DNA of 64,000 bases from Candidatus Bipolaricaulota bacterium (lineage in GTDB: Bacteria > Patescibacteriota > Patescibacteriia > UBA11705 > DATKZF01), in the NCBI GenBank assembly GCA_035528115.1, contig DATKZF010000002.1, positions 69,751 through 133,750 on the forward strand, read 5' to 3'. Below are positions 8,664 to 64,000 of the stretch, piece after piece; within the stretch, counting starts at the first letter, position 1; every line of letters starts with the position of its first letter. The position numbers were made by a program, and so were the translations under genes. Below the pieces are notes generated by a model. The model was given only the letters and a program-made list of their open reading frames with translations, was not told the origin of the DNA and searched no databases.

Positions 8664-9046
8664 GGGGATGATCGGCTTCGACGGGAGTCCTGAAATCAAA
8701 AGCGCGAAATGAGCTGTCAGCCGCTCATTAAACTGCTGGCAAATCCAATAAGTGCAACAAATGTACTGGCGAAAGTCAAAAGCTTATTTCAAGCTCCGGC
8801 TTTTGCTCCCGTTCTTGCCTAAAAGTGAGAACCGTCCGCTTGCCGATACTCGATGAGCAAACCGGACGTCAATATCGAGTTAGGCCGTCGCCATGCCAAA
8901 AGCGCCGACTGAAATAAAACGGCTCGGCCCGCTCGGAGTTTCGTTTATCTTTAATCCGGCGGTCTTAAATGATAAGATAAACTATTTTCGTAGATGCTTT
9001 TTATTTCAACTTCCAGACGCGGGTTCGATTCCCGCCATCTCCACCA
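8664..9046 (+). ncRNA. ssrA: tmRNA (SsrA)
   Basis: The 5' end GGGGATGATCGGCTTCGACGGG matches the canonical tmRNA 5' acceptor/D-arm consensus (GGGG..G.TTCGACGGG). The 3' end ACGCGGGTTCGATTCCCGCCATCTCCACCA is a tRNA-like T-arm plus acceptor with encoded CCA. The 5' GGGGATG pairs with 3' CATCTCC. It sits directly after smpB. The tag-peptide reading frame was not confidently identified. Confidence 0.85.
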
Positions 9047-11188: not shown

Positions 11189-11265
11189 GGATCGGTGGTG
11201 TAGCTGGTTAACACGCCGCCCTGTCACGGCGGAGATCGCGGGTTCGAGTCCCGTCCGATCCGCCA
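11189..11265 (+). tRNA. tRNA-Asp (anticodon GTC), CCA encoded
   Basis: Cloverleaf read by hand. The acceptor is GGATCGG/CCGATCC, with D-stem GTGT/ACAC. The anticodon stem is CCGCC/GGCGG with loop CTGTCAC (U33, GTC, A37). The T-arm is GCGGG-TTCGAGT-CCCGT, the discriminator is G, and CCA follows. It is flanked by the complementary ATTCAGGCTG / CAGCCTGAAT leader-trailer pairing. Confidence 0.88.
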
Positions 11266-11394: not shown

Positions 11395-11598
11395 CTACTG
11401 CCTTCTTCCTTTCCTTTGACAGTAATAAAAGGTCAAGCCGCCGGCCATCGCGGAAACCGCCCAAATGCCGAGACAAATGGCGGCAAACCGCTGACTAGGC
11501 AACGCTGACGCGTCAGCGATTCCCTTGATCAAGATGCCCCAGATCAAGAGAAACATGACCGTCAAGCCGACAAGCCACCCACGAACCGCGCCTTTCAT
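11395..11598 (-). CDS. Small hydrophobic protein (about 67 aa, two TM helices), moderately GC-rich
   Basis: The internal ATG at 11598 is preceded by GGAGG (reverse-complement context AACCCTGGAGGAGTCATG). The longer six-frame ORF to 11808 lacks such a signal. Confidence 0.35.
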   Translation of the reverse strand: MKGAVRGWLVGLTVMFLLIWGILIKGIADASALPSQRFAAICLGIWAVSAMAGGLTFYYCQRKGRRQ

Positions 11599-11760
11599 GA
11601 CTCCTCCAGGGTTTTGTCCACGATTCTGTATTATATCATGTTTTATCAAAAAAGTCAATACCACAAACAAAAAAATCCCCTTCGTGAGGATTTTGCATAA
11701 TTTGACAATCACCCTGAAAACAAATAAGCTTTTCGAGAACCGCCAAACAGGAGGACGACC

Positions 11761-12057: not shown

Positions 12058-12924
12058 TTAAAATTCTTTTTTGATCCGCTCTATTTGTTTATCAATTTTT
12101 TTCTTAATTTCCGTTCTTTGCCCTTTTCGAAGGGACATAAAAATAATGAAAAACACTGAGATCAACGCGACCAAAACGCTGAAAAGCTGAGCCCAACGAA
12201 CGCCGAAAACAATCGGGCTATAGTCGACTCTCAAAAACTCCATATTGAATCTGATGATCGAATAGCCCAGAAGATATGAAAAGAAAATTACGCCATTTTT
12301 TATCGAGATATTTTTTTTAAATCTCAGCCATACCAAAAGCAACAACGCTCCGAGCAAAACGATGTTAAGCAATGACTCATACAAAAACGCGGGATGGAAA
12401 TATTTATCGGCCAAATATTCGACCGGCCGAAAGGCGGACAAAATCGGAATGCCCCAAGGCAAATCGGTTGGCTGGCCGAAAAGCTCCTGATTGAAATAAT
12501 TGCCCCAGCGTCCGATAATCTGCGCGCACACCAAGCCGATGGCTGATAAATCGAAAAGGTCTTTCCAATTAACTTTTTTCATTCTGGCAAAAAAATAAGT
12601 CGCTAAAAAAGCTCCGATCATGACGCCATGCACCGCGAGTCCTCCTTGCCATATTTTCAAAACATCAAGAGGTCTGTCTTTATAAAATTCAAAAGCGTAA
12701 AGCACGTAATAAATTCTGCCTCCGACAAGACCGGCGATGGCCCACCAGAAAACAAGATCAAACAGCCAATCTTTTTTTATTTTAAAATATTTCGCCAATG
12801 CTCTGGCCAAAAACAATCCGGCCAAGCCTCCGAGAACCATGAGCAAGCCGTACCAATGGACGTCCAGCGGTCCAATGGAAAAAGCGATCGGCTTGGGAGA
12901 AAATGTGTGCAAAAAAATATTCAT
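12058..12924 (-). CDS. lgt: Prolipoprotein diacylglyceryl transferase
   Basis: 288 aa and multi-TM. HWYGLLMVLGGLAG and GRWGNYFNQELFGQPT are signature Lgt motifs. Confidence 0.9.
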   Translation of the reverse strand: MNIFLHTFSPKPIAFSIGPLDVHWYGLLMVLGGLAGLFLARALAKYFKIKKDWLFDLVFWWAIAGLVGGRIYYVLYAFEFYKDRPLDVLKIWQGGLAVHGVMIGAFLATYFFARMKKVNWKDLFDLSAIGLVCAQIIGRWGNYFNQELFGQPTDLPWGIPILSAFRPVEYLADKYFHPAFLYESLLNIVLLGALLLLVWLRFKKNISIKNGVIFFSYLLGYSIIRFNMEFLRVDYSPIVFGVRWAQLFSVLVALISVFFIIFMSLRKGQRTEIKKKIDKQIERIKKEF

Positions 12925-38998: not shown

Positions 38999-39421
38999 CT
39001 AGCCGATCGCCGAAATCGGCTCGCGGTCGTCGCAGATGGCCTCGACCGCGCGGGAGATTGCCCACGCCCACAACGCGGCATAGGCAGGCAGGATAAGGTG
39101 CCGGAAACCCTGGCGATCGCGAATCGGCTGCGGCTCATCCAGATTGTGATTGACAGAAACCACCAACAGCGGGATCTCCTGCCTGATCGCCGCCTGGTGA
39201 ATCTCCAAGACGAGCGGCGTGAGCATTCGATGCTCCCGCCCCCATTCCGCGAGGATGACGAGATCGACTCCCGGAGGCAAATTGATGCCTCCATTGTCGA
39301 GCTGAGCTCGCAGCTCCCGCTCGTCAATGTAGTCGAAATCTTCCTTCAGACACTCTCGACACCATGCTTGCGCGCTTCCGGCCGCGGCCCGATTGTATCC
39401 AATCACCAACACATTCGGCAT
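38999..39421 (-). CDS. GC-rich orphan hypothetical protein with alternating beta-alpha (flavodoxin/Rossmann-like) pattern
   Basis: 140 aa. VLVIGYN...DLVILAEWG...PLLVVSV hydrophobic strands alternate with helices. A G-rich RBS lies upstream. A bidirectional terminator hairpin sits at 38941-38975 (AGAGCCAAGTCTGACCTGGCTCT). Confidence 0.4.
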   Translation of the reverse strand: MPNVLVIGYNRAAAGSAQAWCRECLKEDFDYIDERELRAQLDNGGINLPPGVDLVILAEWGREHRMLTPLVLEIHQAAIRQEIPLLVVSVNHNLDEPQPIRDRQGFRHLILPAYAALWAWAISRAVEAICDDREPISAIG

Positions 39422-40597: not shown

Positions 40598-42136
40598 ATG
40601 AAATATACTCCAATAATCGGCCTCGAATTTCACATTCAGCTGAATACTCGCAGCAAAATGTTTTGCGATTGCGATAATTTGAACGAAGATGATTTGCCGA
40701 ACACGGCCATCTGCCCGATCTGTCTGGGCCAGCCGGGAGCCTTGCCGACTTTGAACAAAAAAGCGATTGAATCCGCGGTCAAACTCGGTTTGGCGCTGAA
40801 TTGCGAAATAGCTTCATTCACCAAATTCGATCGCAAAAATTATTTTTACCCTGATCTGCCCAAAGGTTATCAAATCTCGCAATTTGATTTGCCGATTTGC
40901 TCGGAAGGAAATTTTATAATCAATGCGGGCGCCAAAGACGGCCTGGCCGGCAGACTGGACAAAGAAGAAGAATTGAAAAGAATCAGAATCGTGCGCGCGC
41001 ACATGGAAGAAGACACGGCAAAAATGATTCATTCGAAGGAAGAGTCAAAATCGCTTTTGGATTTCAATCGCAGCGGTTCGCCTTTGCTGGAAATAGTCAC
41101 CTATCCGGATTTTCGAAATCCGAGCGAAGCCAAGACCTTTGGCCAAGAATTGCAACTGCTGGTGCGGGAACTGGGAATTTCAGACGCTGACATGGAAAAA
41201 GGGCATCTTCGCTGCGACGCCAATATTTCGCTATTGCCTGAAAACGACACGGAATTAAATCCCAAAACCGAAATCAAAAACATCAATTCGTTCAAATCGC
41301 TGGAAAAGGCGCTGGAATTTGAAATCAACAGACAGACCTTGCTTTGGGAAAAAGGCGAAGCGCCCAAAGAGCAAGCGACTCGCGGCTGGAACGATAAAAT
41401 TCAAGAGACGGTGGAGCAACGCTCCAAAGAAGGCGCGAAAGATTACCGCTATTTTCCGGAGCCGGATATTCCTCCGCTGACCATTGGCAAAGAATACGTG
41501 GCGGAAATAAAAGCGCTCTTGCCCGAATTGCCGCAAGCCAAGCGCCGACGATTCATGGAAGAATACGGCTTTCCCGGCGAAGCCGCTAAAATTTTAACTT
41601 CAAACAAACAAATCGATGACTTTACCGAGCGAGCGATTTCAGAGCTGAGCGAATGGGTGTCCACTCTCGAAGAGGTCGAAGGGTCAAAAGAAGAAATCTG
41701 GGAAAATTCGAAAAAGAAATTGATTAAAACTTTAAGCGACCGGCTAATCAACGGACTTTTGCCGATATTGGAAAAAGAAAATATTGATTTGTCCGAAAGC
41801 AAAATCAATCCTGAAAACTTCGCTGAATTGATTACCATGATTTTTGAAAGAAAAGTAAACAGCGCGGCCGCCGATAAAATATTGGAAGCCATGGTAAAAA
41901 CCGGCATTGGCCCGTCGCAGGCCGTTGTGGAATTGAATTTGGAACAAGTGTCCGATGACGAAACCATTGAAGCCGTGGTTGATTCGGTGATCAAACAATG
42001 TCCGGATCAAGTGGCCGAATACAAATCAGGCAAGGAGCCGATAATAAAATATTTATTGGGCCAAGTCATGAAACAATCCGGCGGCAAGGTTGAGCCGAAA
42101 AAGGCGGAAGAAATTTTAAAAAACAAATTGAAATAA
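40598..42136 (+). CDS. gatB: Asp-tRNA(Asn)/Glu-tRNA(Gln) amidotransferase subunit B
   Basis: 512 aa. The MKYTPIIGLEFHIQLNTRSKMFCDC N-terminus and the C-terminal YqeY-like domain match GatB. It is followed by GC-rich palindromic terminators at 42160-42235 (GTAGAGACGCGCCGCGGCGCGTCTCTAC). Confidence 0.9.
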   Translation: MKYTPIIGLEFHIQLNTRSKMFCDCDNLNEDDLPNTAICPICLGQPGALPTLNKKAIESAVKLGLALNCEIASFTKFDRKNYFYPDLPKGYQISQFDLPICSEGNFIINAGAKDGLAGRLDKEEELKRIRIVRAHMEEDTAKMIHSKEESKSLLDFNRSGSPLLEIVTYPDFRNPSEAKTFGQELQLLVRELGISDADMEKGHLRCDANISLLPENDTELNPKTEIKNINSFKSLEKALEFEINRQTLLWEKGEAPKEQATRGWNDKIQETVEQRSKEGAKDYRYFPEPDIPPLTIGKEYVAEIKALLPELPQAKRRRFMEEYGFPGEAAKILTSNKQIDDFTERAISELSEWVSTLEEVEGSKEEIWENSKKKLIKTLSDRLINGLLPILEKENIDLSESKINPENFAELITMIFERKVNSAAADKILEAMVKTGIGPSQAVVELNLEQVSDDETIEAVVDSVIKQCPDQVAEYKSGKEPIIKYLLGQVMKQSGGKVEPKKAEEILKNKLK

Positions 42137-42298
42137 ACGCGCGGCAACGGACGAATGTCCGTCGTAGAGACGCGCCGCGGCGCGTCTCTACACGGCGGCG
42201 AAATCGCCGCCGGCCGCGCGTTTTTATTTTTTAAAATAGAAGAACGCCGTCTGGATTGACCAAACGGCGCTCAAGAACTGCAGGAGGCGCCCACTCCC

Positions 42299-43012
42299 CT
42301 AGTACGGGTAGCAGGCGCCATCGTTGTCGCAGTACGTGCCGGTCGGACAGTCGTTGTCCGATCCGCAGGTGGCAGGCCGAGGCTCGGGCGCGCTCTGGTA
42401 ACAGAGCCCGTCCGAGGAGCAGAAGGTTCCGACCGGACAGTCGCTGGCCGACTGGCAGCCGGTCCGCGTGAGCGGGACACAGCTACCATCCGCGGCGCAG
42501 AAGTTGCCGACCGGGCAGTCGTAGTCCGAGATGCAACCGGCCTGCATCGCATAGCAGGCACCGTCAGCACCGCAGTAGAAACCGATATGACAGTCGGCAT
42601 CCACGCGGCAGCCTCCGACCGGACCGTCTTCGACCACGACCGCGACTTGCGAGACGCTGCAATAGCCGTCCCAGTCGCAGAACATGTCGGACCGGCAGTC
42701 CCAGTCGCTGGCACAGGGGTACAACCACTCACAGTAGTTGACCCCCGGGACAGCCATCGGCTGACAGTACATGTTGAACGGACAATCATCGTCCGTCCAA
42801 CAACCACCGTCTGTCGCGACCGCCTCGTCCACGTAGCCGGGCTCGCCGATGCAGGTGTTTCCCACATCGGTGCCGGTGCAGACCGTCCCGTACGGACAGT
42901 CGTAGTCGCTGTAGCACTGATCGTCGATCGGCTCGTGGTAGCCGACCGAGCCGAAGCAGCCGTTGAAGAAAGCGCACAGGACGCACAACGCCGCAAACAT
43001 CATGCTTTTCAT
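42299..43012 (-). CDS. Secreted cysteine-rich repeat protein with about 8 tandem DxDCPxGxxC(x)2-4DG(x)C modules; GC-rich
   Basis: The start is at the internal ATG at 43012, preceded by GGGGAG. The signal peptide is MKSMMFAALCVLCAFFNGCFG. Repeats such as SDYDCPYGTVCTG, TDDDCPFNMYCQP, SDWDCRSDMFCDWDGYC, VDADCHIGFYCGADGAC, SDYDCPVGNFCAADGSC, SASDCPVGTFCSSDGLC and SDNDCPTGTYCDNDGAC are read directly. Confidence 0.6.
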   Translation of the reverse strand: MKSMMFAALCVLCAFFNGCFGSVGYHEPIDDQCYSDYDCPYGTVCTGTDVGNTCIGEPGYVDEAVATDGGCWTDDDCPFNMYCQPMAVPGVNYCEWLYPCASDWDCRSDMFCDWDGYCSVSQVAVVVEDGPVGGCRVDADCHIGFYCGADGACYAMQAGCISDYDCPVGNFCAADGSCVPLTRTGCQSASDCPVGTFCSSDGLCYQSAPEPRPATCGSDNDCPTGTYCDNDGACYPY

Positions 43013-43196
43013 GATCTCTCCCCTTTTCTTTTCCCGCCTTGGCGGGATTTTGAAGTTCTTGCAATTCCAGTAAATCATTATATTATATCATATTTAATCA
43101 AAAAAGTCAATGATTGTAGTCTTTTTTTATCTAATTTTGGATAAAAAAAGCGAAATGCAAACATTCCGCAAACAAATAGAAATGGATAATGTATTA

Positions 43197-44117
43197 TCAG
43201 CTTAAAAACGCGTTAATAAGCGGTTTGGCGTCCTTTGGTCCATTGACCCATTTAATTGATTTATCGCGCAAAAACCAAGTATTTTGGCGCTTGGCGTAGT
43301 GTCTGGTGTTGATCTTAAGATCCTCTTTGGCTTTGGCCAGATCCGTTCTGCCTTGAATGAATTCGCAGACTTCCTGATAGCCGATGGTGTTCTTCATAAT
43401 CGGCAAATCGCAAGTATAACCGCTCTTATTAAGCTCCTTTATTTCTTCGACCAAACCCTGCGCAAACATCTCATCCACTCGATGATTTATTTTTTCATAC
43501 AATTCTTCCTTGTCGACTTTCACTCCCAAAGTCAAAAATTTATATTTTTTAGAAACACCGCGTTGCTGAAATTCGGAAAACTTCTTGCCCGAGCTCATGA
43601 CCACTTCAAGCGCTCTGATCACTCGGCGCGGATTTTTCAAATCAATCAATTCCTCGGCTTCGGGGTCGAGCTTCAATAATTTTTCAACCAAATATTCAAG
43701 TCCTTTTTTTTCAAATTTTTTATTGAGCTTGTCTCTTAATTTTTGCGAGGACGCGGGCGCCAATGAAAATCCTTGCGTCAGCGCTGAAATATAAAGTCCG
43801 GTGCCGCCGACAATGATCGGCGTTTGATCCGGATTCTCGGCGATAATGCGATCAACTTCGGACAACCAATCGGCTACGGTAAAATCGTTTTTCGGATCGA
43901 TTATGTCAACCAAATATTCGGCAATGCCGTTGACATAAAAGACGCCATCCTTCCATTCTCCTTGGTCTTTATTGGTGCCGATATTCATGTGTTTATAAAT
44001 TTGGCGAGAATCCGCGGCAATCAAAAAACCGTCATGCTCTTTGGCGATTTGCAGAGCAAGACCAGATTTGCCCGAGCCTGTCGGACCGCAGATGATAATT
44101 ATCTTTCTTTTCTTCAT
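43197..44117 (-). CDS. miaA: tRNA dimethylallyltransferase
   Basis: The P-loop is IIICGPTGSGKS, followed by ...ADSRQIYKHMNIGTNKD. It is 306 aa, typical of MiaA. Confidence 0.9.
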   Translation of the reverse strand: MKKRKIIIICGPTGSGKSGLALQIAKEHDGFLIAADSRQIYKHMNIGTNKDQGEWKDGVFYVNGIAEYLVDIIDPKNDFTVADWLSEVDRIIAENPDQTPIIVGGTGLYISALTQGFSLAPASSQKLRDKLNKKFEKKGLEYLVEKLLKLDPEAEELIDLKNPRRVIRALEVVMSSGKKFSEFQQRGVSKKYKFLTLGVKVDKEELYEKINHRVDEMFAQGLVEEIKELNKSGYTCDLPIMKNTIGYQEVCEFIQGRTDLAKAKEDLKINTRHYAKRQNTWFLRDKSIKWVNGPKDAKPLINAFLS

Positions 44118-54141: not shown

Positions 54142-55236
54142 CTAGTCGACGTCTGCCGCGGGGAATGCCCCGGACAAGAAGTTCTCGGACTCGGCCGCCT
54201 TGGCCAGGTCCTGCTCGATCAACTTCGCCCAGAGCTCGACGACCGTGAGCGGGAGCTCGAAGATGAACCGGTCGCCGCGCGCGACCATGATCTCCTCGAG
54301 CAGGCCGAGATCATCCGAATTGCCCAGCAATCCGACGGCTGTGACCGGGGTCGGGTCGCCGAAGACCGCCTTGATCTTCTCGCCGCGAATGAAGACGCCC
54401 GGAGCCACTTCGTAGCCGGGCCAGGTGTCCGTCGCCGCGGTCTGGTAGAACTGCTCGACGACCGCCCAGAAACCCTCTTCCTCGCGGAAGTACTGCTCAA
54501 CCGTCTTGAAGAAACGGCTGAGCAATCCCGGCATGAAGCGCTGGAGCAGCTGCTCCTTCGAGCAGAGCGCCTCGGACGCGGCTCCGAGCATGTGCACGTC
54601 GAGGGGGAGCAAGTGCGCGAGCTCGGGGTACTTCTCGAACACCGGCCGGAACCCGGCCGCGAGTTCGGAAGCGCTCAAGCCGAACGCCTTGTCGCCGAGC
54701 GGACCGGACTGCCGCACTTCCGTTTCCTTGAGGAAGAAGCATGGCCCGTTCAGAACCTCGAAGATGGGGTGGCCGAGCCACTCCTCCCCTGCCTTCTCGT
54801 GCAGGTAGCCGGACAGCCGAGGCAGGCCGGCCTTGATGAAGTCGGTGATCGCCGCCTCCACGCGGGCGAAGAACGCCCGCGTGCCGCCGTCGTAATGCGC
54901 TAGCAGCTGCCGGCGCCGCCACGCCTTGCGCACGTCCACTGCATGCGTTCCGCGCTCCTGCGGATCCTGCTCGCTCGAGACCTCCAGCATGCGTAGGGGA
55001 GTAGCCGCCGCCTTCTTCTCCGCCTTGGCCGCGCTGGGCGGCACGTCGATCTGGAACACCTTCGGCTCTGACTTCGGCCGAGCCTCTGGAGGAACATCGG
55101 TCTGAAAGCCGTTGCCCGCCGGTGCCGCCGCCGAGTCGAGCCGGACAGTATTCGGTCCCGGCGTGAAATGCACCGCCGGATCCACGGTCGTGCCCGGCTC
55201 CGAAAAAGAAACGCCCTTGCCCTTCTTGTCCGTCAT
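54142..55236 (-). CDS. GC-rich orphan hypothetical protein (364 aa), Ala/Pro-rich N-terminal region
   Basis: AGGAGG lies 6 nt upstream of the ATG. It is much more GC-rich than the flanks. No family recognised. Confidence 0.45.
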   Translation of the reverse strand: MTDKKGKGVSFSEPGTTVDPAVHFTPGPNTVRLDSAAAPAGNGFQTDVPPEARPKSEPKVFQIDVPPSAAKAEKKAAATPLRMLEVSSEQDPQERGTHAVDVRKAWRRRQLLAHYDGGTRAFFARVEAAITDFIKAGLPRLSGYLHEKAGEEWLGHPIFEVLNGPCFFLKETEVRQSGPLGDKAFGLSASELAAGFRPVFEKYPELAHLLPLDVHMLGAASEALCSKEQLLQRFMPGLLSRFFKTVEQYFREEEGFWAVVEQFYQTAATDTWPGYEVAPGVFIRGEKIKAVFGDPTPVTAVGLLGNSDDLGLLEEIMVARGDRFIFELPLTVVELWAKLIEQDLAKAAESENFLSGAFPAADVD

Positions 55237-56012: not shown

Positions 56013-57032
56013 TTATAATTGAAAAAAATCTTTAAGTATTGGGACAAATGAGTATTTTTTTACTCTATCAACTAATTCATGTTCTATATTTTTATTGTTA
56101 CAATCTTTTATATAATGACTAATAAGATAAATAGCTTCTTTACTAGTTGTGTAAAGAAATCTTTCTGGAAAAAAATCAGGGTAACACAAATTATTAGGTA
56201 ATACCGGGATACATCCGCATGCAACAGCCTTCATGACTGCATAACCAAAATTCTCTTGTTTTGAACAACTTAAAACAATACGTGATTGAGCAAGTGTTTG
56301 AATATGCTCAGTTGAAGATTGCTCCGCAATAAATATTATATTTTTATATCGTTGAAGCATTTTAAAATATTTATTTTTTCTCATAATATTCATGGGCTGC
56401 GGGAAAGTTACCACGAACCCAACAGCAGGCAACTTTGATACGATGCAACAAAATTGCTCAATACCTTTATCGTCATCGAGCCTATGTGGAAATATTACAT
56501 CATATTTTATTTTATGTGATAAAAGACATTTCCTAAAAGCATCCATTCCCCATGGTGAAACCTTTATCTTTTTGCAAAAATCCTGAGGACACTCTTCAGC
56601 AAGAAACCTTGATGGCACATAAATCCTATCATAAATACTAGCCCAAGCGAATTCTGTTTTTTTTAACCACGGCCAAGAATATAAATCATTCGGCAAAAAA
56701 GAACCTCCATGCAACAATGCGCCCAATCGACAAATAATTCCTTGCTGAGTATAATAATATTTCAATAGATCAATGCCGGGATTAAAAAAATCCAAAAATA
56801 AAATTCGGTCAACTTTCCCTAATGCAATAAGTTTTTCAATGAGTTTAAATTGTCCAGTAATATAATCTGAGTCATCCAATATTCCTCCTTTAATGCAATT
56901 ATCAAGTGGTTTAATATATCCAACCATCGTTGCCTTTATACCAATATGTTTAATGGATAATTTCAATCCACGCACAATATCTTCAAATGAAGTTCCTAAA
57001 TAGTAAGGTGGGATAGCGATAATATTCTTCAT
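56013..57032 (-). CDS. Glycosyltransferase, GT-B fold (GT4-like)
   Basis: The C-terminal ENFGYAVMKAVACGCIPV matches the E-x7-E / ExFG nucleotide-sugar binding motif of GT4 enzymes. 339 aa. Confidence 0.65.
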   Translation of the reverse strand: MKNIIAIPPYYLGTSFEDIVRGLKLSIKHIGIKATMVGYIKPLDNCIKGGILDDSDYITGQFKLIEKLIALGKVDRILFLDFFNPGIDLLKYYYTQQGIICRLGALLHGGSFLPNDLYSWPWLKKTEFAWASIYDRIYVPSRFLAEECPQDFCKKIKVSPWGMDAFRKCLLSHKIKYDVIFPHRLDDDKGIEQFCCIVSKLPAVGFVVTFPQPMNIMRKNKYFKMLQRYKNIIFIAEQSSTEHIQTLAQSRIVLSCSKQENFGYAVMKAVACGCIPVLPNNLCYPDFFPERFLYTTSKEAIYLISHYIKDCNNKNIEHELVDRVKKYSFVPILKDFFQL

Positions 57033-57040
57033 AATATATT

Positions 57041-58108
57041 CTAAGAATACCTAAGAATATCCGCGGTATTAGCTAACACGTCTTTCGTCAAAATAATATC
57101 ATGCTGTTGGACCTGCGACAATGGCACGTCCTCTCTATATTCTCCTTTTTCCTTTCTTAATTCATTCATTAATAATGTTGGAATAGTAGCCGCTGTCATC
57201 CTCACGTTGAGTTCTAAGACTGATATCTTCTGGGTCTCCGATTCAACCATGAAATCAACACCAAAAAAGCCTTCATATCCTTCAAGGAAAATATTTATTT
57301 TACTTAGCACATCACGTAACTGTCTTAAAATTATGTCATCTAAAAATTCCAATGGCAATATTTTAGATCCTACAAAATATTTATTTTCCGCGATAAGTTG
57401 TTCTGAAAATCCAAAAATAATGGTGTCTCCCGATTCTCTATATCGCACACATTGTATGCTATGAGGTATTCCTAACGCGAGAGCTTCCCAATACCATTCA
57501 TCAGAAGTCTTTGAAAAAAGATTTCTAAAATTTAAATCACATTTTATTTCCGAGCTCAAAAACACCGTATACCCCCCGGATCCAAATCTTCTTTTAAGAA
57601 AACCTGGCTTATGAATGCACTCAAAATCATCCAACTCTTTCACATTATTAATTTTCTTCCATTCCGGAGTATAACTCTTTAATACATCCTTTTGAGATAA
57701 TTTATCATTATATTTTTTAAATTCCGAATAATTGTAATTAATGGATAGTTTGTTTTCCTTAGCTAATGCATCTGCCTTAGGATGAGGTATTGATACCCAG
57801 AGAGAAGAAATTTCATTCTTAGTTATTATGTCATCTTTTACTCTCTCAAATACCGACACTCTTGGATCCATGGCTTTTCTTACCGGCAATATGTTATTAC
57901 CATGATTATATTCAATACCTCCAAAATCATCATTTACTATCACATATTGCCCATCCAATATCCATGGTAAAAGATTTTCATACTTCCACATGGCCGGGAT
58001 TTCGTATAACATAGATTCGCTGATAGCACGAAAATCTGACAGATAAAGCGTCCGTTTATTGCAAAGAAAAGGAATTTCTGATGGAATTAACTGTTTTGTT
58101 AGAATCAT
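57041..58108 (-). CDS. ATP-grasp domain ligase
   Basis: LKRRFGSGGYTVF (the Gly-rich ATP loop) and GVDFMV...ELNVRMT (C-terminal Mg/ATP site) are typical of ATP-grasp carboxylate-amine ligases. Confidence 0.55.
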   Translation of the reverse strand: MILTKQLIPSEIPFLCNKRTLYLSDFRAISESMLYEIPAMWKYENLLPWILDGQYVIVNDDFGGIEYNHGNNILPVRKAMDPRVSVFERVKDDIITKNEISSLWVSIPHPKADALAKENKLSINYNYSEFKKYNDKLSQKDVLKSYTPEWKKINNVKELDDFECIHKPGFLKRRFGSGGYTVFLSSEIKCDLNFRNLFSKTSDEWYWEALALGIPHSIQCVRYRESGDTIIFGFSEQLIAENKYFVGSKILPLEFLDDIILRQLRDVLSKINIFLEGYEGFFGVDFMVESETQKISVLELNVRMTAATIPTLLMNELRKEKGEYREDVPLSQVQQHDIILTKDVLANTADILRYS

Positions 58109-60063
58109 AAATAATGTATATAAAATTTTTTAAAGTTTATTTGTTTACCGAGCCAGTCTATATCAGGATCAATAGTCCTGAATATAAATAAATCAGAAGA
58201 TGAACTATACTCCGACGAAGACCTATCAATTGCAAGACTGTCGAGAAAACGATCAGCTCTTTTTCTCTCACTGAAATGCATTGGTAATTTATACTGACTG
58301 AAATTCCTTCTTATTTCAATCAAATACACCCCTGCGCGAGAAAGGATCTGTTGCAATTTCAACAAATTTTTCCCTATCATCGTTTGATTTAAAATAACAT
58401 AAAATTCTTTTACATTGTTATTCTTTACAAGCATCCTAAGGCCAGCAAAAATAAATGCCAAAGCACCATATATAGTATACGGCGGATCAGTAATAAATGT
58501 CTGAACTTCCGGGAAACCATCCGCCTTAATTATCTTCCTAATGTCAAATTTTATAACTTTAAATCGTGGAGAGGCCTTTTTAATAATTTTTGTTATATTA
58601 TCGTCTTTTTCTATAATAACAGGGTAAGCCCAAAATTCATTAATAAATTCTAAACTTACCAAGTCATCATCTCCTATTATGCCAAACTTTAAATATTCAG
58701 TAAAAGGGTAGCGTTCTTTAAATAAATCAAAACGTCGTTTACGTGACGCAAAATCACAAGGGAATTGATTTAAATCACAATTTGGAACAAAAGATGGATT
58801 CTCTATTAATTCAAAAAAATCTTTTTTTGTAAAATGAAAATTGAATATTTTTTTCACCTTACCGTTCTTTTCAACCTTGACTATTTCATTCTTTATTCCC
58901 ACATCAATAAGAACGCCTATATTGTCAAAATCCGCTGAACTATTCTTAATAAACTCATCAACATTATTACTGTTTTGTAAATTCCTCATTAAACAAGCAA
59001 AATCCATCTTTTCAATCATGTTATTTTTTCGCCAAGATGAAACTGTTTTCCTATCAGACAATTGTATATCTAAGGGTATCAGCCTGATATAATCCTCATA
59101 TGCTTCTTCTATTCTAAAATCATAATGAATAGGCTTTAATTTTTCTAAAACCGTCCTCCTCTGCATTGGTTTTCCAGAAAATGTGTTTATCACGTGGAAC
59201 GAAAAATATCCTCTTTCAATTAATGCTAAAAAGTATTCAACAAGATTGCTCTGTTGATTTATTCCTGCACGGTGAGACACATGAATCACTAAAAAATCAT
59301 TCATAAGCATAAAACGATATCCTAATTCATATAATCTGAACATCAAAAAATCATCTTCAAATCCATAACCCGAATAATTCGGAAATCCTCCCAGTTTTTT
59401 AAAAATATCCTTTTTGCAGAATCCGAAATTAGCGATAAATGTTGACTGCTTAATATTTTGAAAAAATGGATCACGAAACAAAGCAGGAGGAAGTCCGGCA
59501 TTATGTTTTAAAAACCCAATTTCTCCGTTCTCCATTTTATTAAGTATCTTTTTTGTATTTTTGGGAAACCATCCCTGCCTTGTCCACAATCGTTTTGCGC
59601 CGTATCCATAATCGAAATTCCTCGAAAGACAAAAAATTTTCTGAAAAGCGCTATTATCTAAAATTATTGTATCATCATCAACAAAAACAAGCAGATTGCT
59701 ACTTGCCCTCTCAGCGCCGATATTCCTTGCTTTACCATAACCATATGATTGCTTGTTATTTATAAGCGAAAAGGCTATGGGCGTTGGCCTTCTTTTGTTC
59801 AATTCACGAACCGTGTCTCGTATTAATGGGATGTTATTTTTTTTATGGTGACTATTTTCAATTAAAATTACCTCAAAATATTTAAATTTTTGTGCAAAAA
59901 TTGCAGTCAAACAATGAAGGATACAATTTCCTTTCGCTTTCCCTGGGTCACAGGAAAGGATAATACAAGAAAGTTTAATTATTTTTTTTCCCATACAGAT
60001 CATAACAAGCACTTTCAATACAATCCACGTAAACTCATATAATAAAGAATAGCGAACTTTCAT
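58105..60063 (-). CDS. Fusion protein: N-terminal GT2 glycosyltransferase plus C-terminal GDDD/DPPY-motif domain (DUF43/BpsA-like aminopropyltransferase- or amino-methyltransferase-like)
   Basis: GT2 motifs: CIILSCDPG, GYGKARNIG, VFVDDDT (DxD) and GFEDDF. The C-terminal roughly 250 aa carry KFGIIGDDDLVSLEF and FITDPPYTIYG. The ATGA start overlaps the stop of the ATP-grasp gene. Confidence 0.6.
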   Translation of the reverse strand: MKVRYSLLYEFTWIVLKVLVMICMGKKIIKLSCIILSCDPGKAKGNCILHCLTAIFAQKFKYFEVILIENSHHKKNNIPLIRDTVRELNKRRPTPIAFSLINNKQSYGYGKARNIGAERASSNLLVFVDDDTIILDNSAFQKIFCLSRNFDYGYGAKRLWTRQGWFPKNTKKILNKMENGEIGFLKHNAGLPPALFRDPFFQNIKQSTFIANFGFCKKDIFKKLGGFPNYSGYGFEDDFLMFRLYELGYRFMLMNDFLVIHVSHRAGINQQSNLVEYFLALIERGYFSFHVINTFSGKPMQRRTVLEKLKPIHYDFRIEEAYEDYIRLIPLDIQLSDRKTVSSWRKNNMIEKMDFACLMRNLQNSNNVDEFIKNSSADFDNIGVLIDVGIKNEIVKVEKNGKVKKIFNFHFTKKDFFELIENPSFVPNCDLNQFPCDFASRKRRFDLFKERYPFTEYLKFGIIGDDDLVSLEFINEFWAYPVIIEKDDNITKIIKKASPRFKVIKFDIRKIIKADGFPEVQTFITDPPYTIYGALAFIFAGLRMLVKNNNVKEFYVILNQTMIGKNLLKLQQILSRAGVYLIEIRRNFSQYKLPMHFSERKRADRFLDSLAIDRSSSEYSSSSDLFIFRTIDPDIDWLGKQINFKKFYIHYL

Positions 60064-60066
60064 GAA

Positions 60067-60384
60067 CTAATAGTGAAACTTTAGCACTCTCCCTTTTCTC
60101 AGCAAAAAGCATAGCTTAAATAGATTCGCTACTTTTAACTGACGAATTGTTTTTTTAGAACAAGTAACTAAGTCGATGTGTATGTAAGAATTTTCGGGCC
60201 AGACATGTACAGCAATATGGCTTTCCTCTAATATAAAAACGATTGAACTGCCTTGAGGATGAAATCCATGAACTGTTTTTTTTACAATATGCAAACCTAA
60301 TAGAGAAACAAACATCTCTATTCTGGACATAAGTTCTCTTTTTTTAAAAATATTGGGATCATCGCCAAAACCTTCTAGCACCAT
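60067..60384 (-). CDS. speH: S-adenosylmethionine decarboxylase proenzyme (pyruvoyl-dependent, small bacterial/archaeal SpeH/SpeD type)
   Basis: 105 aa. FILEESHIAVHVWPE matches the self-processing E|S site and HTWPE signature of class-1 AdoMetDC. Confidence 0.78.
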   Translation of the reverse strand: MVLEGFGDDPNIFKKRELMSRIEMFVSLLGLHIVKKTVHGFHPQGSSIVFILEESHIAVHVWPENSYIHIDLVTCSKKTIRQLKVANLFKLCFLLRKGRVLKFHY

Positions 60385-60483
60385 ATGACAAGTAATGTGT
60401 GTATGCTCGCCCCATTGTTTTTCCCAATTATCTACTGGACTAAAATTATATATTTGGATTGTCTTATTTGGACATGATATAGA

Positions 60484-60852
60484 TTAAACAATTATCCATG
60501 ATGATAACACTTCTCCCATATATCCCTCACACACTGAAACTGAAACAGTTTTAAAATTAAAATCAGCAGCGATCTTTTTCTTTATAAATATTGCTATATT
60601 CTCCGCCGTTGTAGGCTCGTTCCAGCCATGCTCGTTAAAAACATCATTAACGTGTCTGTGATCAAAAATTCCTATAATGTCTTTGATTTTTTTAAAATCT
60701 GCAATCATGCCATTCTTTAATTCGCCCGATTCAATTTCTACTTTCACAAGATAAGTATGCCCATGCAGTCGCGCACAATCCTTTGAAATCAAATTACTGC
60801 TGTCGGGCAGTGTGTGAGAAGCATGGAAAAAATCTGATACTACAAGCTTCAT
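60484..60852 (-). CDS. 6-pyruvoyl-tetrahydropterin synthase family protein (QueD/PTPS-like)
   Basis: 122 aa. The Zn-binding CARLHGHTY (CxxxHGH) and second motif D..H.HV (FDHRHVNDV) are present. Confidence 0.75.
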   Translation of the reverse strand: MKLVVSDFFHASHTLPDSSNLISKDCARLHGHTYLVKVEIESGELKNGMIADFKKIKDIIGIFDHRHVNDVFNEHGWNEPTTAENIAIFIKKKIAADFNFKTVSVSVCEGYMGEVLSSWIIV

Positions 60853-60895: not shown

Positions 60896-61705
60896 TTATA
60901 AACCCTTTACAATCATCATTTTCCGATCGCCCAGCCTCATTTTTCTTGACTTTTCCGCGTCAGGCGTTTCCGTCTCTTCATAAGGCCGGAAAACAATGCC
61001 GTTTTCCGAATACAAATCATGAACGGCCGAGAGCAAATTATCGTATTTATATTTGAATTTCAATCCTTTTCTGGTGCCCGGATCATTGGTGATAAATTCG
61101 TTTCTGTCATATCCGCGAACGACCAACATGTGAAACAGCGGGCCCGGAGCGGTAAAATTGGGATTATCCAAGTCGCGGCCCGAAGCCGGCAAAATGATCA
61201 AATGTCCCTTGACCAATTCTTCCTTTATTCTTTGTTCCGAAACATCGCTTGATATTTCAACATCCAATTTAAAATATTCCTTGGCCATTCGAGCCACCTC
61301 AGCCACGTTGGTGTCGGTGTACAAGCCGAGATTGGTCGTTTCCCAAGCCACCAATTTTTTCAATTCCTCATCCATAATGGCGGCGTCCAGCGGCTGTTTG
61401 GCGAAATATTTGTATGCCGTGATCAAGCTGGCTTCTTCGCACGCTTCCTGATACGGCAATTCCCAATTGCCAAAAGGCGCTTGCGACGCGAACGCCACGT
61501 CCAAATCAAAAGTGGCGGGCAATGAAACCTCTTGCTCAGCCGGGGCATGCTCAAGCGTCGCGGGAGATTCTACCGTTGTTTCTGGCGTCGCTTCGGTTGT
61601 TAATGCCTCGTTTTCAAGATTGTTCGCAAGCAATGAAATTCGGCCGCAACCGGACAAAATTATCAATAAAAACGGAAAAAACGCGATTTTTGTTAATTTA
61701 TTCAT
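60896..61705 (-). CDS. Lipoprotein (lipobox LSGC) with possible papain-like/C39-like peptidase domain
   Basis: MNKLTKIAFFPFLLIILSGCG is a signal peptide plus lipobox. QAPFGNWELPYQEACEEASL with a downstream His (VKGHLIIL) is weakly reminiscent of C39-like peptidases. This is low confidence. Confidence 0.4.
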   Translation of the reverse strand: MNKLTKIAFFPFLLIILSGCGRISLLANNLENEALTTEATPETTVESPATLEHAPAEQEVSLPATFDLDVAFASQAPFGNWELPYQEACEEASLITAYKYFAKQPLDAAIMDEELKKLVAWETTNLGLYTDTNVAEVARMAKEYFKLDVEISSDVSEQRIKEELVKGHLIILPASGRDLDNPNFTAPGPLFHMLVVRGYDRNEFITNDPGTRKGLKFKYKYDNLLSAVHDLYSENGIVFRPYEETETPDAEKSRKMRLGDRKMMIVKGL

Positions 61706-62344: not shown

Positions 62345-64000
62345 TCAGCCGCCGCTCGGCGAGATGTCGCCGGTCGAGGTCAGACTGAACTTGATGCCGC
62401 ATGTGTACGCGCTGCCGTCGAAACCGCAGCGGCGAAACGGTCCGACATCATCGTAGAGCGAATCTCCATACTGCGCCCAAGCGCCCGACTCGCTCATGTA
62501 CGAGACGCTATACTGGCCGGCCAAGGTATTGGCGGGCAAAAGCAGACGGTAATAGCCGTCCGCGTCGATTGCCATTTGCATGCCGGATTGAAGCGACCAG
62601 CCCATGTCCGGCAATTCTCCAACCGCGAAAGCCGCGTTGGGCTTTCCGGTCAAGTATTGGCTGTTAAAGGCCAAACAGCGCTGACCGCAGGATTTCGCCG
62701 CCCAAAAATCGGGCGTCTGATCCGGCGAAGACTGAGGCGGCAATGACGAAGAAAAATCTTCGTCCGTTTGACCATCGCAGTTATTGTCCGCGTTGTCCTC
62801 CACTTCGGCGCTCGGCAAGACTTCATCTTGGATCGTCTGCCAGACGCCGTTGTCGCAATACTCGATTCGAGGCCGGCATTCTCCCACCCCGATCGTCTCG
62901 CTCGCTTCGGAATACGAAGTTTGCATCTGATGATCCACGCATTCTTCGTCGTCTTGCGGCGGATCGGGATATTGATTCCAGCCGTCGTCGGTCAGGCCGT
63001 CGCAGTCATTGTCTTGCCCGTCGTTTTGCTCCGGCTCGGGCAGGACCTCGTCTTGAGAAATGACCCAGTGTCCGCTTTGGCAGACCGAAATCTCCGGCCG
63101 GCAAGGACCGATGCCGAAGGTTTCGATCGATCCGGAGTAGGCGCTGAAAATTTGACCTTCTTCGCATTCGACAGGTGTCGAAAAATCCTCGTCCGTTTCG
63201 CCGTCGCAGTCATTGTCGAGGCCGTCCGCCGTTTCCGAGATTGGCAAGACCTCGTTTCTGATCTGATGCCAATCTCCGGCAAAACATTCTTCGATCTTGG
63301 TCCGGCACGAACCGACGTTCACCGTCTCGCTTGAACCGGAATAGGTTTCCAGCTCATCCCCATCGAGGCATGAGTTGCCTCCTCCTTCGGGATTTGCGAA
63401 ACACCGGTTGATGTTCTCGACGGTGATCAGGTCGCCGAAACCGGCGACGCTCATGAGCATTTGAGCCGCGTCCACGGTCCAGATCTGACCGCTCGCGTAG
63501 CCCATTTGCGAAAATACTTGAAAATTCGCGAACGGTCTGGCCACTCCATTGCCTGAAATGACAAAGACCGCGCCCTGGCCAAAGCCCTGATTGGTCAGAG
63601 CCGGTTCGGGTTTGACCAGCCGTCCGTCTCTGATGTGCAGAATGCCACCCTCATCGCAAACGGACAGCTTTTGCTGACCTTGCGACGCGGACAGCACGGG
63701 CATGTCTTCGGGCAGATAGCCCCAGCTTTCCGCGGCCAGCGCGGAAGCGAACTTGTAGATCATGCAGCCCTGGTCATTGGCCGATTGCTTTTCCAGCAGG
63801 TAATGCCAGCTGGCGCCGGCCACGCGAAAGACTTCGCGATAAGGCTGCCAGTCAACCGTCCAAGATTCCGGATAGCAGTCGAGCTCTGTCTGACTGACCT
63901 CCAGAATCAAGTTGGAGTCGAAGCCGTGAGCCAGGAAGACTTCCCAATTCACGACCCAGTGCTTGGCGCCATCGAGGAGAACGTAGACCTTGGGCTCGAG
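62345..64000 (-). CDS. Large GC-rich secreted/surface protein with three tandem MopE-like putative metal-binding repeats (D-x-D-N-D-C-D-G-x-T-D-E). 5' end beyond window
   Basis: The 5' end runs beyond the window, as the reading frame stays open to 64000. Three repeats are read directly: ...CRTKIEECFAGDWHQIRNEVLPISETADGLDNDCDGETDEDF, ...CRPEISVCQSGHWVISQDEVLPEPEQNDGQDNDCDGLTDDGW and ...CRPRIEYCDNGVWQTIQDEVLPSAEVEDNADNNCDGQTDEDF. Confidence 0.6.
   Translation of the reverse strand, partial: LEPKVYVLLDGAKHWVVNWEVFLAHGFDSNLILEVSQTELDCYPESWTVDWQPYREVFRVAGASWHYLLEKQSANDQGCMIYKFASALAAESWGYLPEDMPVLSASQGQQKLSVCDEGGILHIRDGRLVKPEPALTNQGFGQGAVFVISGNGVARPFANFQVFSQMGYASGQIWTVDAAQMLMSVAGFGDLITVENINRCFANPEGGGNSCLDGDELETYSGSSETVNVGSCRTKIEECFAGDWHQIRNEVLPISETADGLDNDCDGETDEDFSTPVECEEGQIFSAYSGSIETFGIGPCRPEISVCQSGHWVISQDEVLPEPEQNDGQDNDCDGLTDDGWNQYPDPPQDDEECVDHQMQTSYSEASETIGVGECRPRIEYCDNGVWQTIQDEVLPSAEVEDNADNNCDGQTDEDFSSSLPPQSSPDQTPDFWAAKSCGQRCLAFNSQYLTGKPNAAFAVGELPDMGWSLQSGMQMAIDADGYYRLLLPANTLAGQYSVSYMSESGAWAQYGDSLYDDVGPFRRCGFDGSAYTCGIKFSLTSTGDISPSGG

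Follow-up and report, generated by a model that had tools for sequence, protein, structure and literature searches.

The Locus and Its Transcription Unit

The stretch of DNA analyzed here, hereafter the window, comprises 64,000 nucleotides of contig DATKZF010000002.1 (positions 69,751 to 133,750, forward strand) from assembly GCA_035528115.1 of a Candidatus Bipolaricaulota bacterium. Between gatB (40598-42136, plus strand) and miaA (43197-44117, minus strand) it holds a GC-rich gene, convergent with gatB and downstream of miaA, whose product is almost certainly a real secreted protein built of TIGR04201/DUF7107 repeats. The position between these two neighbors had been recognized in a preliminary description made from the sequence alone, and both identities are supported by precomputed Pfam matches on the identical public contig. 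The features of the gene are the following:

43082-43110, minus strand: sigma-70-type promoter TTGACT-17-TATAAT with extended -10 TG (TTGACTTTTTTGATTAAATATGATATAAT), matching 11 of 12 consensus positions plus the TG
43033-43046, minus strand: hairpin CCCGCCAAGGCGGG in the 5' untranslated region (UTR), with a 5-6 bp stem, formed in the minimum free energy fold
43018-43023, minus strand: ribosome-binding site (RBS) GGGGAG, 5 nt ahead of the ATG at 43012, read from the sequence
42299-43012, minus strand: coding sequence (CDS) of 237 amino acids (aa) plus stop, with the Pfam and NCBIfam matches and the ortholog alignment in the same frame
42956-43012, minus strand: predicted signal peptide MKSMMFAALCVLCAFFNG-C19 with a lipobox-like end, read from the sequence
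42851-42916, minus strand: module 1, CYSDYDCPYGTVCTGTDVGNTC, last loop of 8 aa
42731-42802, minus strand: module 2, CWTDDDCPFNMYCQPMAVPGVNYC, last loop of 10 aa
42659-42715, minus strand: module 3, CASDWDCRSDMFCDWDGYC, the first module with a counterpart in the ortholog of the nearest genome
42626-42640, minus strand: linker motif VVVED (residues 125-129), invariant between the window and the same ortholog
42554-42610, minus strand: module 4, CRVDADCHIGFYCGADGAC, four-Cys motif
42479-42535, minus strand: module 5, CISDYDCPVGNFCAADGSC, four-Cys motif
42401-42457, minus strand: module 6, CQSASDCPVGTFCSSDGLC, four-Cys motif
42311-42367, minus strand: module 7, CGSDNDCPTGTYCDNDGAC, the best TIGR04201 stretch
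42242-42272, minus strand: intrinsic-terminator-like hairpin, 27 nt past the stop codon, with a 13-pair stem followed by a T-rich tail

The open reading frame (ORF) initially proposed, 42299-43078 on the minus strand, is indeed present. This maximal ORF of 259 aa is nevertheless an unlikely product, because the promoter covers 43110-43082 and because GGGGAG, rightly taken for an RBS from the outset (43023-43018, 5 nt from the ATG), precedes the ATG at 43012. The latter is thus the likely start, the alternative ATG at 43078 lying right at the border of the promoter's -10 box. Only the 259-aa version has been recorded as a gene call, and an exact look-up in the protein collection found neither the 237-aa product nor two shorter start variants. 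The promoter of the Cys-rich gene is one of only two perfect TTGACn-N14-TGnTATAAT matches in the window, and a terminator-like site of miaA (43169-43150) lies upstream of it. The possession of its own promoter, RBS, and terminator therefore makes the Cys-rich gene a separate transcription unit. A GC hairpin had also been reported upstream of the gene; CCCGCCAAGGCGGG does occur at 43046-43033 on the minus strand, but it is unremarkable when compared with shuffled sequences (z = -0.68). It lies inside a 15-nt insertion that is unique to the window and missing from the orthologous 5' UTRs, and it is probably a chance feature, or else a minor element for mRNA stability. At the position matching the window RBS, the orthologs described below have GGAGG.

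On the other side of the gene, just past gatB, a perfect 28-nt GC-rich palindrome (GTAGAGACGCGCCG/CGGCGCGTCTCTAC; 42164-42191) comes before a second GC hairpin and a T-run, and these elements together probably form the gatB terminator. The palindrome and the hairpin account for the 61% GC of the region between gatB and the Cys-rich gene. The other perfect promoter of the window (11630-11658, minus strand; TTGACTTTTTTGATAAAACATGATATAAT) differs very little from the one of the Cys-rich gene and is followed by a GGAGGA RBS and by an ORF for a 67-aa, two-helix membrane protein (11395-11598, minus strand), also relatively GC-rich (GC 0.55, 0.68 at third codon positions [GC3]). More generally, near-consensus extended -10 promoters are strongly over-represented across the window, with nine sites (at most one mismatch) for 0.07 expected; they lie upstream of tRNA-Asp, nifU, a PP2C gene, a Wzz-like gene, and GC-rich genes such as 54142-55236 and 252-986. 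The tRNA-Asp(GTC) gene is at 11189-11265, and a tmRNA (Rfam, 128.6 bits; tag peptide ATNVLAKVKSLFQAPAFAPVLA) at 8664-9046.

A Mature Protein Made Solely of Four-Cysteine Modules

The mature protein (218 aa) consists only of seven tandem modules, its 28 cysteines falling into seven groups of four. Each module has the spacing C-x5-C-x5-C-x5-C, except for the last loop of modules 1 and 2, and the consensus is C-x-S-D-x-D-C-P-x-G-x-[YF]-C-x-x-D-G-x-C. The tandem Cys-rich pattern announced in the preliminary description is thus real, but it comprises seven modules, not about eight, and four cysteines per module instead of three, the first one, five residues before D-C-P, having been overlooked. Likewise, the regular spacing of about 25 aa holds as far as the strict intramodule distances are concerned, whereas the linkers vary (16, 5, 16, 6, 7, 11, and 3 aa), giving a period of 25-38 aa.

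Such regularity is far from what composition alone would produce: the mature protein contains 20 C-x5-C spacings, versus 1.8 +/- 1.3 (maximum 8) in 20,000 shuffles, and the motif C-x5-C-x5-C-x(4-10)-C is found seven times in the Cys-rich gene, a six-frame scan of the window showing no other occurrence. At the DNA level, however, the modules resemble each other only over cores of 24-41 nt (63-88% identity), and Tandem Repeats Finder detected no tandem array in the CDS, from which it follows that the modules are of old date and did not arise by recent duplication. The protein is very acidic, with 34 Asp+Glu against four Arg and no Lys (calculated pI of about 4); it contains 12% aromatic residues, two His, and four Met in its mature form, and ends three residues past module 7 (...CYPY) with no sorting tag.

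Family Membership and Distribution of the Module

Three curated families match the protein above their cut-offs, in agreement with the myxobacterial and Dickkopf-like repeat families suggested at first. Pfam Dickkopf_N (PF04706) scores 39.3 bits (cut-off 25), its best stretch (residues 160-200) covering model positions 2-47 of 51. Pfam DUF7107 (PF23416; cut-off 24.6) scores 38.1 bits, and 47.4 bits in the ortholog of the nearest genome. NCBIfam TIGR04201 (Myxo_Cys_RPT; cut-off 25), the only NCBIfam match of the protein, scores 26.3 bits (E 5.4e-6) over five stretches. Matches to WAP (14.5 bits; cut-off 20.8), Squash (9.3 bits; cut-off 22), and Lustrin (10.6 bits; cut-off 27) are below threshold, and the Pfam scan returned no second cysteine-rich domain (CRD2) of the Dickkopf type, no carbohydrate-binding family, and no PF11617. 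A known curated repeat family thereby gains a member in an uncultured lineage, and the ORF can be described as encoding a predicted TIGR04201/DUF7107 repeat lipoprotein, with a corrected start codon and module definition. The literature search retrieved no paper mentioning DUF7107, and TIGR04201 only in Pathak (2012).

An exhaustive HMMER search over 1.84 billion cluster representatives identified 119 proteins with the module at E <= 1e-3, 14 of them at E <= 1e-10 (best score 96 bits), and nearly all the best-scoring stretches were in the regular repeats, mostly at residues ~130-237. Such an exhaustive search was needed to reveal the family, because word-indexed searches gave only one match with the single sequence and nine with a 30-fragment profile, nearly all on contigs shorter than 1 kb (longest 2,954 bp). 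Among 106 homologs that were scanned, 71 matched DUF7107, 55 Dickkopf_N, 50 TIGR04201, and 10 the TraA model; single homologs also carry trypsin, matrixin, SLH, Big_1, and other domains. About half of the homologs have lipoprotein-type N-termini, and many are short and contain modules only. VVVE[ED] linkers resembling the VVVED of the window are found in two of them (P0005 and P0092), and a high-GC homolog (L062; 35% identity) has an unrelated genomic context. The module is thus a widespread building block, and the earlier statement that the pattern is atypical of small-genome bacteria was overstated. No close full-length relative of the protein was found outside its own lineage.

Orthologs, Selection, and the N-Terminal Signal

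The identical 259-aa ORF is present in at least six contigs that were assembled independently (ENA, Logan, JGI), with an unchanged context in each, and the locus is therefore not an assembly chimera. In the nearest GTDB genome (L003; MiaA 73% identical, background GC of about 33%), a lipoprotein of seven modules, which starts with MYKLFSAMVLVAVMLSGC and is 44% identical to the query, is encoded between miaA and gatB. In a metagenome scan, the organism of L003 turned up once more (L060), along with another relative (L061); both have the miaA-X-gatB arrangement. The genes in the miaA-gatB slot of L003/L060 and L061 are the only true orthologs that we found. The alignment is anchored on DM[FY]CDW[DH]GYC...VVVVED, so that window modules 3-7 correspond to L003 modules 1-5; this two-module shift in register indicates that modules were gained and lost at both ends, and the orthologs hold seven modules (mature length ~205-218 aa).

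Substitution rates were as follows:

L003 versus L061, Cys-rich gene: dN 0.067, dS 0.848, dN/dS 0.08
L003 versus L061, miaA: dN 0.044, dS 0.686, dN/dS 0.064
L003 versus L061, gatB: dN 0.033, dS 0.622, dN/dS 0.053

Judging from these ratios, the Cys-rich gene is under purifying selection similar to that acting on miaA and gatB. The possibility, raised at the outset, that the ORF might not be translated or that another frame might be better is countered both by this low dN/dS and by the alignment of the orthologs in the same frame. Moreover, the window, L003, and L061 have an almost identical promoter block, TTGACTTTTTT....AAATATGATATAATATAAT.ATTT, while synonymous sites are saturated between the window and L003 (proportion of synonymous differences [pS] 0.77-0.84), which shows that the promoter is also under selection. 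The synteny and the conserved promoter indicate that the gene is inherited vertically within its lineage.

The classification of this lineage itself looks poor: proteins identical to those of the window (among them HUT22140.1; locus tags VMX18_) are filed under Candidatus Bipolaricaulota bacterium, whereas uncultured Gammaproteobacteria bacterium is the name given to the nearest GTDB representative, and beyond that representative MiaA relatives are at most 44% identical.

The N-terminal signal first proposed was present. Its G18-C19 is invariant in the ortholog alignment, where C19 aligns with the lipobox cysteine of both orthologs, whose lipoboxes are canonical (MLSGC and VISGC). Lgt, the prolipoprotein diacylglyceryl transferase, is needed to lipidate a predicted lipobox cysteine, and the window encodes it:

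12058-12924, minus strand: lgt (PF01790, 233.5 bits)

Lipidation of Cys19 is thus likely. A second clear lipoprotein (lipobox ILSGC, Peptidase_C39_2) is encoded at 60896-61705, adjoining a gene for a MopE-like protein.

Predicted Structure of the Module

AlphaFold2 models were obtained for the mature protein (40-row alignment; mean predicted local distance difference test score [pLDDT] 71, predicted template-modeling score [pTM] 0.30) and for modules 4-7 (61-row alignment; pLDDT 83, pTM 0.35). In both models, every module is predicted to form a helical turn of three residues at D-x-D, immediately preceding Cys2, followed by a two-stranded hairpin in which Cys3 closes strand 1 and Cys4 opens strand 2, around the D-G turn.

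Taken singly, the modules superpose on the squash knottins EETI-II and MCoTI-II with a root mean square deviation (rmsd) of 0.6-0.9 Å over 20-24 residues (33-45% identity, Foldseek probability up to 0.97). The local match to EETI-II itself (0.8-0.9 Å over 23 residues, 35% identity, probability 0.97) has a non-significant E-value. The MCoTI alignment (C-RRDSD-C-PGACI-C-RGNGY-C) shows that the Cys framework of the module corresponds to knottin Cys2, 3, 5, and 6. The preliminary description had put forward a disulfide-knotted module: disulfide stabilization agrees with the even number of cysteines in each module, with the AlphaFold models, and with the local likeness to knottins, but the knot does not hold, since knottin Cys1 and Cys4 are lacking and the module consequently has no third disulfide.

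The Foldseek matches that covered several modules at once were megalin/LRP2 strings of LDL-receptor class A (LDLa) modules (E 0.05-0.5, rmsd above 10 Å), scytovirin (E 0.15-0.24), and Dkk4 CRD1 (5o57; E 0.2). A profile of 30 homologous four-module fragments searched against PDB sequences retrieved the same small proteins at E 0.005-0.1 (Dkk4 CRD1 0.005, scytovirin 0.054) and touched an LRP module at E 0.24. Its best match, the Tenebrio antifreeze protein 1ezg (E 6e-4), was rejected as compositional (bias 36.8 bits, no Thr ladder), and a search with the single sequence, which gave only designed beta-trefoils at E > 0.1, was dismissed as meaningless. The PDB searches revealed no solved homolog.

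High GC Content without Recent Import

The preliminary description had regarded the gene as an isolated GC-rich insert. The region is certainly GC-rich with respect to its neighbors, but the syntenic orthologs and the conserved promoter argue that it is not an insert by origin. The CDS has 63.3-63.6% GC, compared with 45% for gatB, 43% for miaA, and 29.9% for the 184-nt upstream intergenic region, so that GC jumps at the CDS boundary while the promoter is of the host's own type. The amino acid composition of the protein, combined with housekeeping codon usage, predicts 56.4% GC, which covers some 60% of the excess over the housekeeping average (45.5%); it is driven by Cys, Asp, Gly, Pro, and Ala, by the lack of Lys, and by the scarcity of Glu, Ile, and Asn. 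The remaining excess lies in codon choice, since GC3 is 0.82 for 0.62 expected (housekeeping genes ~0.52-0.54). The GC of four-fold sites (0.79) is within the housekeeping range, and NNC/(NNC+NNT) reaches 0.77, versus 0.3-0.5 in typical genes and 0.67-0.69 in those of ribosomal proteins L27 and L20. The orthologs display the same tendency in a different background, with a GC3 of 0.51-0.53 versus 0.18-0.25 in their neighbors, which corresponds to an excess of about +0.3 in all three genomes; in the L003 ortholog, GAC:GAT is 19:4, versus 25:81 in the neighbors. Because the GC3 offset has been kept at saturated synonymous sites, where an unameliorated foreign signature should decay, a maintained codon preference fits better. 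The high GC is therefore the result of amino acid composition and of a maintained preference for C-ending codons, not of recent import, and the gene provides a counter-example to inferring horizontal transfer from a sharply bounded rise in GC. The codon bias, combined with the promoter and the strong RBS, also suggests high expression.

The opposite scenario, in which a GC-rich insert was recently acquired from a myxobacterium-like donor, possibly also the donor of the MopE-like gene at 62345, could invoke the GC and GC3 contrasts (63% vs. 45%, and 0.82 vs. ~0.52), the definition of the repeat family in Myxococcales, the high-GC homolog L062, and the several other GC-rich hypothetical genes of the window. 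It appears extremely unlikely, given a syntenic ortholog and a conserved promoter in two relatives with ~33% GC, a GC3 excess that persists in the orthologs though pS is saturated at 0.84, a high GC limited to the CDS and preceded by 30% GC with a host-type promoter, four-fold sites inside the housekeeping range, and the lack of homology with the MopE-like protein (BLASTP against 62345-63952, E 0.81), which also removes the ground for the shared donor proposed previously. An ancient transfer before the lineages split may have taken place.

Six further genes of the window, all on the minus strand, are GC-rich (252-986, 1229-2128, 2230-3663, 38999-39421, 54142-55236, and 62345-64000; GC3 0.65-0.86), and those looked up are all labeled "hypothetical protein" in the public metagenome-assembled genome. 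The last of them is the MopE-like gene, which runs from 62345 to beyond 64000 and whose full product (767-769 aa) contains Peptidase_C39_2 and MopE-type D-x-D-N-D-C-D-G repeats. The adjacent genes 1229-2128 and 2230-3663 both begin with a zinc-ribbon-like CxxC...CxxC, followed in the former by an acidic stretch, then by GPxGPxG repeats of the collagen type (Pfam Collagen, 34.5 bits) and a hydrophobic C-terminal segment, and in the latter by a hydrophobic segment and a long coiled-coil-like region. At least for 38999-39421, the syntenic slot of L003 (10942-11460) holds an ORF that is not GC-rich and has no detectable homology. The opposite compositional deviation is seen in a low-GC island (56013-60852; ~32% GC, GC3 0.23-0.33), which encodes glycosyltransferases, an ATP-grasp protein, a BpsA_C-domain protein, AdoMet decarboxylase, and PTPS.

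A Candidate Surface Rod and Its Alternatives

We propose that the protein is an abundant, lipid-anchored, disulfide-stiffened, and acidic surface rod acting as a structural, spacer, or coat element, a reading to which we assign a probability of about one half. The seven-module protein would be secreted and anchored by an N-terminal lipid. Each module would form a short S-D-x-D turn and then a beta-hairpin closed by the D-G turn, and would be pinned by two disulfides, probably C1-C3 and C2-C4 by analogy with squash-type knottins, since these have the identical C-x5-C-x5-C-x5-C spacing. Arranged in series, the modules would make a stiff, very acidic, and protease-resistant rod projecting from the membrane. 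Its role would be the same as that proposed for the Cys-rich stalk of the myxobacterial protein TraA, but without a head domain, from which we take it to be an abundant structural, spacer, or coat component, not an enzyme. The genomic context gives no functional clue, as the gene forms its own transcription unit between housekeeping genes. Should it prove abundant on the surface, the protein would become a candidate marker or spacer of the envelope in this uncultured lineage. Doubtful is the further suggestion that it is a major surface component, with a rod length constant at seven modules despite gains and losses at the ends, and that it belongs to a class of genes of this genome with a strong GC and C-ending signature, limited to the CDS and maintained by selection, that would mark a distinct expression or translation regime and not a foreign origin.

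Several observations weigh against the surface-rod proposal. The lipobox of the window protein, F-N-G-C19, is non-canonical at positions -3 and -2 relative to [LVI][ASTVI][GAS]C, which is why lipidation is regarded as likely and no more. Because the inter-module geometry is not confidently predicted (pTM 0.30-0.35), we infer the rod shape instead of reading it from the models, and Foldseek found nothing in the PDB at E <= 0.001, the best match (E 0.05) and all others being non-significant. The margin of the TIGR04201 match above its cut-off is just 1.3 bits. The codon-bias argument for high expression is based on just a few genes of ribosomal proteins from a single window, where several other GC-rich hypothetical genes share the C-ending bias. 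No thiol oxidase was identified among the window ORFs scanned, and the organism is probably anaerobic. Finally, we know of no demonstrated precedent for the function of a head-less stalk.

The modules might instead, although we consider it unlikely, be those of an adhesin or lectin. Being aromatic-rich and disulfide-braced, they would bind a glycan or the surface of a partner cell (peptidoglycan, exopolysaccharide, host envelope) in the manner of hevein- or scytovirin-type mini-domains, for attachment rather than passive spacing. The 12% of aromatic residues, with a conserved Y/F before C3 and often a Y after C4, would suit such a role, as would the weak matches to scytovirin, a cyanobacterial lectin, the use of the repeat family in the cell-cell recognition protein TraA, and the differences in terminal modules among orthologs. 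Yet every one of these matches is non-significant, recognition by TraA resides in its PA14-like head and not in the Cys repeats, and the Pfam scan contains no carbohydrate-binding family. Furthermore, the conserved positions (Cys, D-x-D turn, P, G, D-G turn) are structural in knottins and delineate no obvious binding face.

Binding of metals, which the preliminary description had suggested, is a doubtful alternative. The Asp-rich S-D-x-D and D-G motifs would chelate Ca2+/Mg2+ like LDL-receptor class A or thrombospondin type 3 repeats, or the 28 cysteines, if reduced, would bind metals, so as to buffer or sequester ions at the surface. The acidity of the protein points in this direction, and so do the LDLa strings of megalin/LRP2, which are the top multi-module Foldseek matches, and the contact of the profile with an LRP module. 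However, these LDLa-type matches are non-significant, with rmsd values above 10 Å, and the LDLa Ca2+ cage (D-x-S-D-E, conserved Trp, six Cys) is not reproduced. The D-S-D segment of squash knottins such as EETI-II is a structural 3-10 turn without metal, and the HHH turns of our models are consistent with such a metal-free turn. Nor is there any enrichment in His or Met (two and four residues, respectively), and the regular C-x5-C spacing, without C-x-C or C-C clusters and with many aromatics, is unlike metallothionein.

A tandem knottin-like protease inhibitor shielding the cell surface from proteases, which the superposition on EETI-II and MCoTI-II and the weak Squash and WAP matches might evoke, is highly unlikely, because neither of those two scores reaches its cut-off and the Foldseek E-values exceed 0.5; moreover, the first squash cysteine, the knot-forming third disulfide, and the N-terminal reactive-site loop are all missing from the modules, and the protein offers no Lys and just four Arg as possible P1 residues.

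Comparison with Known Systems

Animal Dickkopf proteins share with the query the motif C-x-S-D-x-D-C-x-x-G-x-x-C. Dickkopf proteins are Wnt antagonists that combine a 10-Cys CRD1 with a C-terminal CRD2 of colipase fold, which binds LRP5/6. The query has no CRD2 and four cysteines per module instead of ten, so that the likeness is that of a mini-module and not of a protein family. DUF7107 is the best-populated family match; its 48-position model spans about two query modules in an arbitrary register, and no function is attached to it.

The squash knottins (EETI-II, MCoTI-II; PF00299) have an identical Cys2-3-5-6 spacing, a D-S-D-C-P-G turn, and an N/D-G hairpin turn, while the query module lacks knottin Cys1, Cys4, and the reactive-site loop. 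Its Cys framework is therefore that of a squash knottin minus one disulfide. In addition, squash inhibitors are single free peptides, whereas the query modules are in tandem and predicted to be lipid-anchored. This likeness may be due to homology or to convergence.

TIGR04201 was built on the Cys-rich tandem repeats (~20 aa) of TraA from Myxococcus xanthus, for which the role of a rigid stalk was proposed (Pathak 2012, PMC3325183). In a later AlphaFold model of TraA, these repeats make a shaft with eight or more beta-hairpins, which oxidation is expected to stiffen (PMC12045341), and deletions showed that single tandem repeats are individually dispensable (PMC6372800), as is expected of a spacer. 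The query resembles TraA in its ~20-aa repeats with conserved cysteines, in the predicted beta-hairpin of each repeat, and in its predicted extracytoplasmic location, anchored at the surface. It differs in several respects: TraA has a PA14-like variable head and a MYXO-CTERM tag, whereas the query has neither, and consists of repeats only, with a predicted N-terminal lipobox instead; TraA has an adjacent traB partner, whereas the neighbors of the query gene are gatB and miaA; the invariant SCNCCP motif of TraA is absent from the query, which does not match the TraA receptor model (NF033759); and TraA comes from a myxobacterium, which the query organism is not.

Further counterparts are the stand-alone module lipoproteins (such as P0001, P0013, P0015, P0020, P0028, P0052, and L062:4923-5879), which have the architecture predicted for the query, with a lipobox signal ahead of three to eight modules, and are 35-49% identical to it over the repeats. 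None is a full-length orthologue, the best score of 96 bits being confined to the repeats, and all are unannotated or "hypothetical". The stalk module of the TraA kin-recognition receptor is thus also found in stand-alone lipoproteins far outside the myxobacteria.

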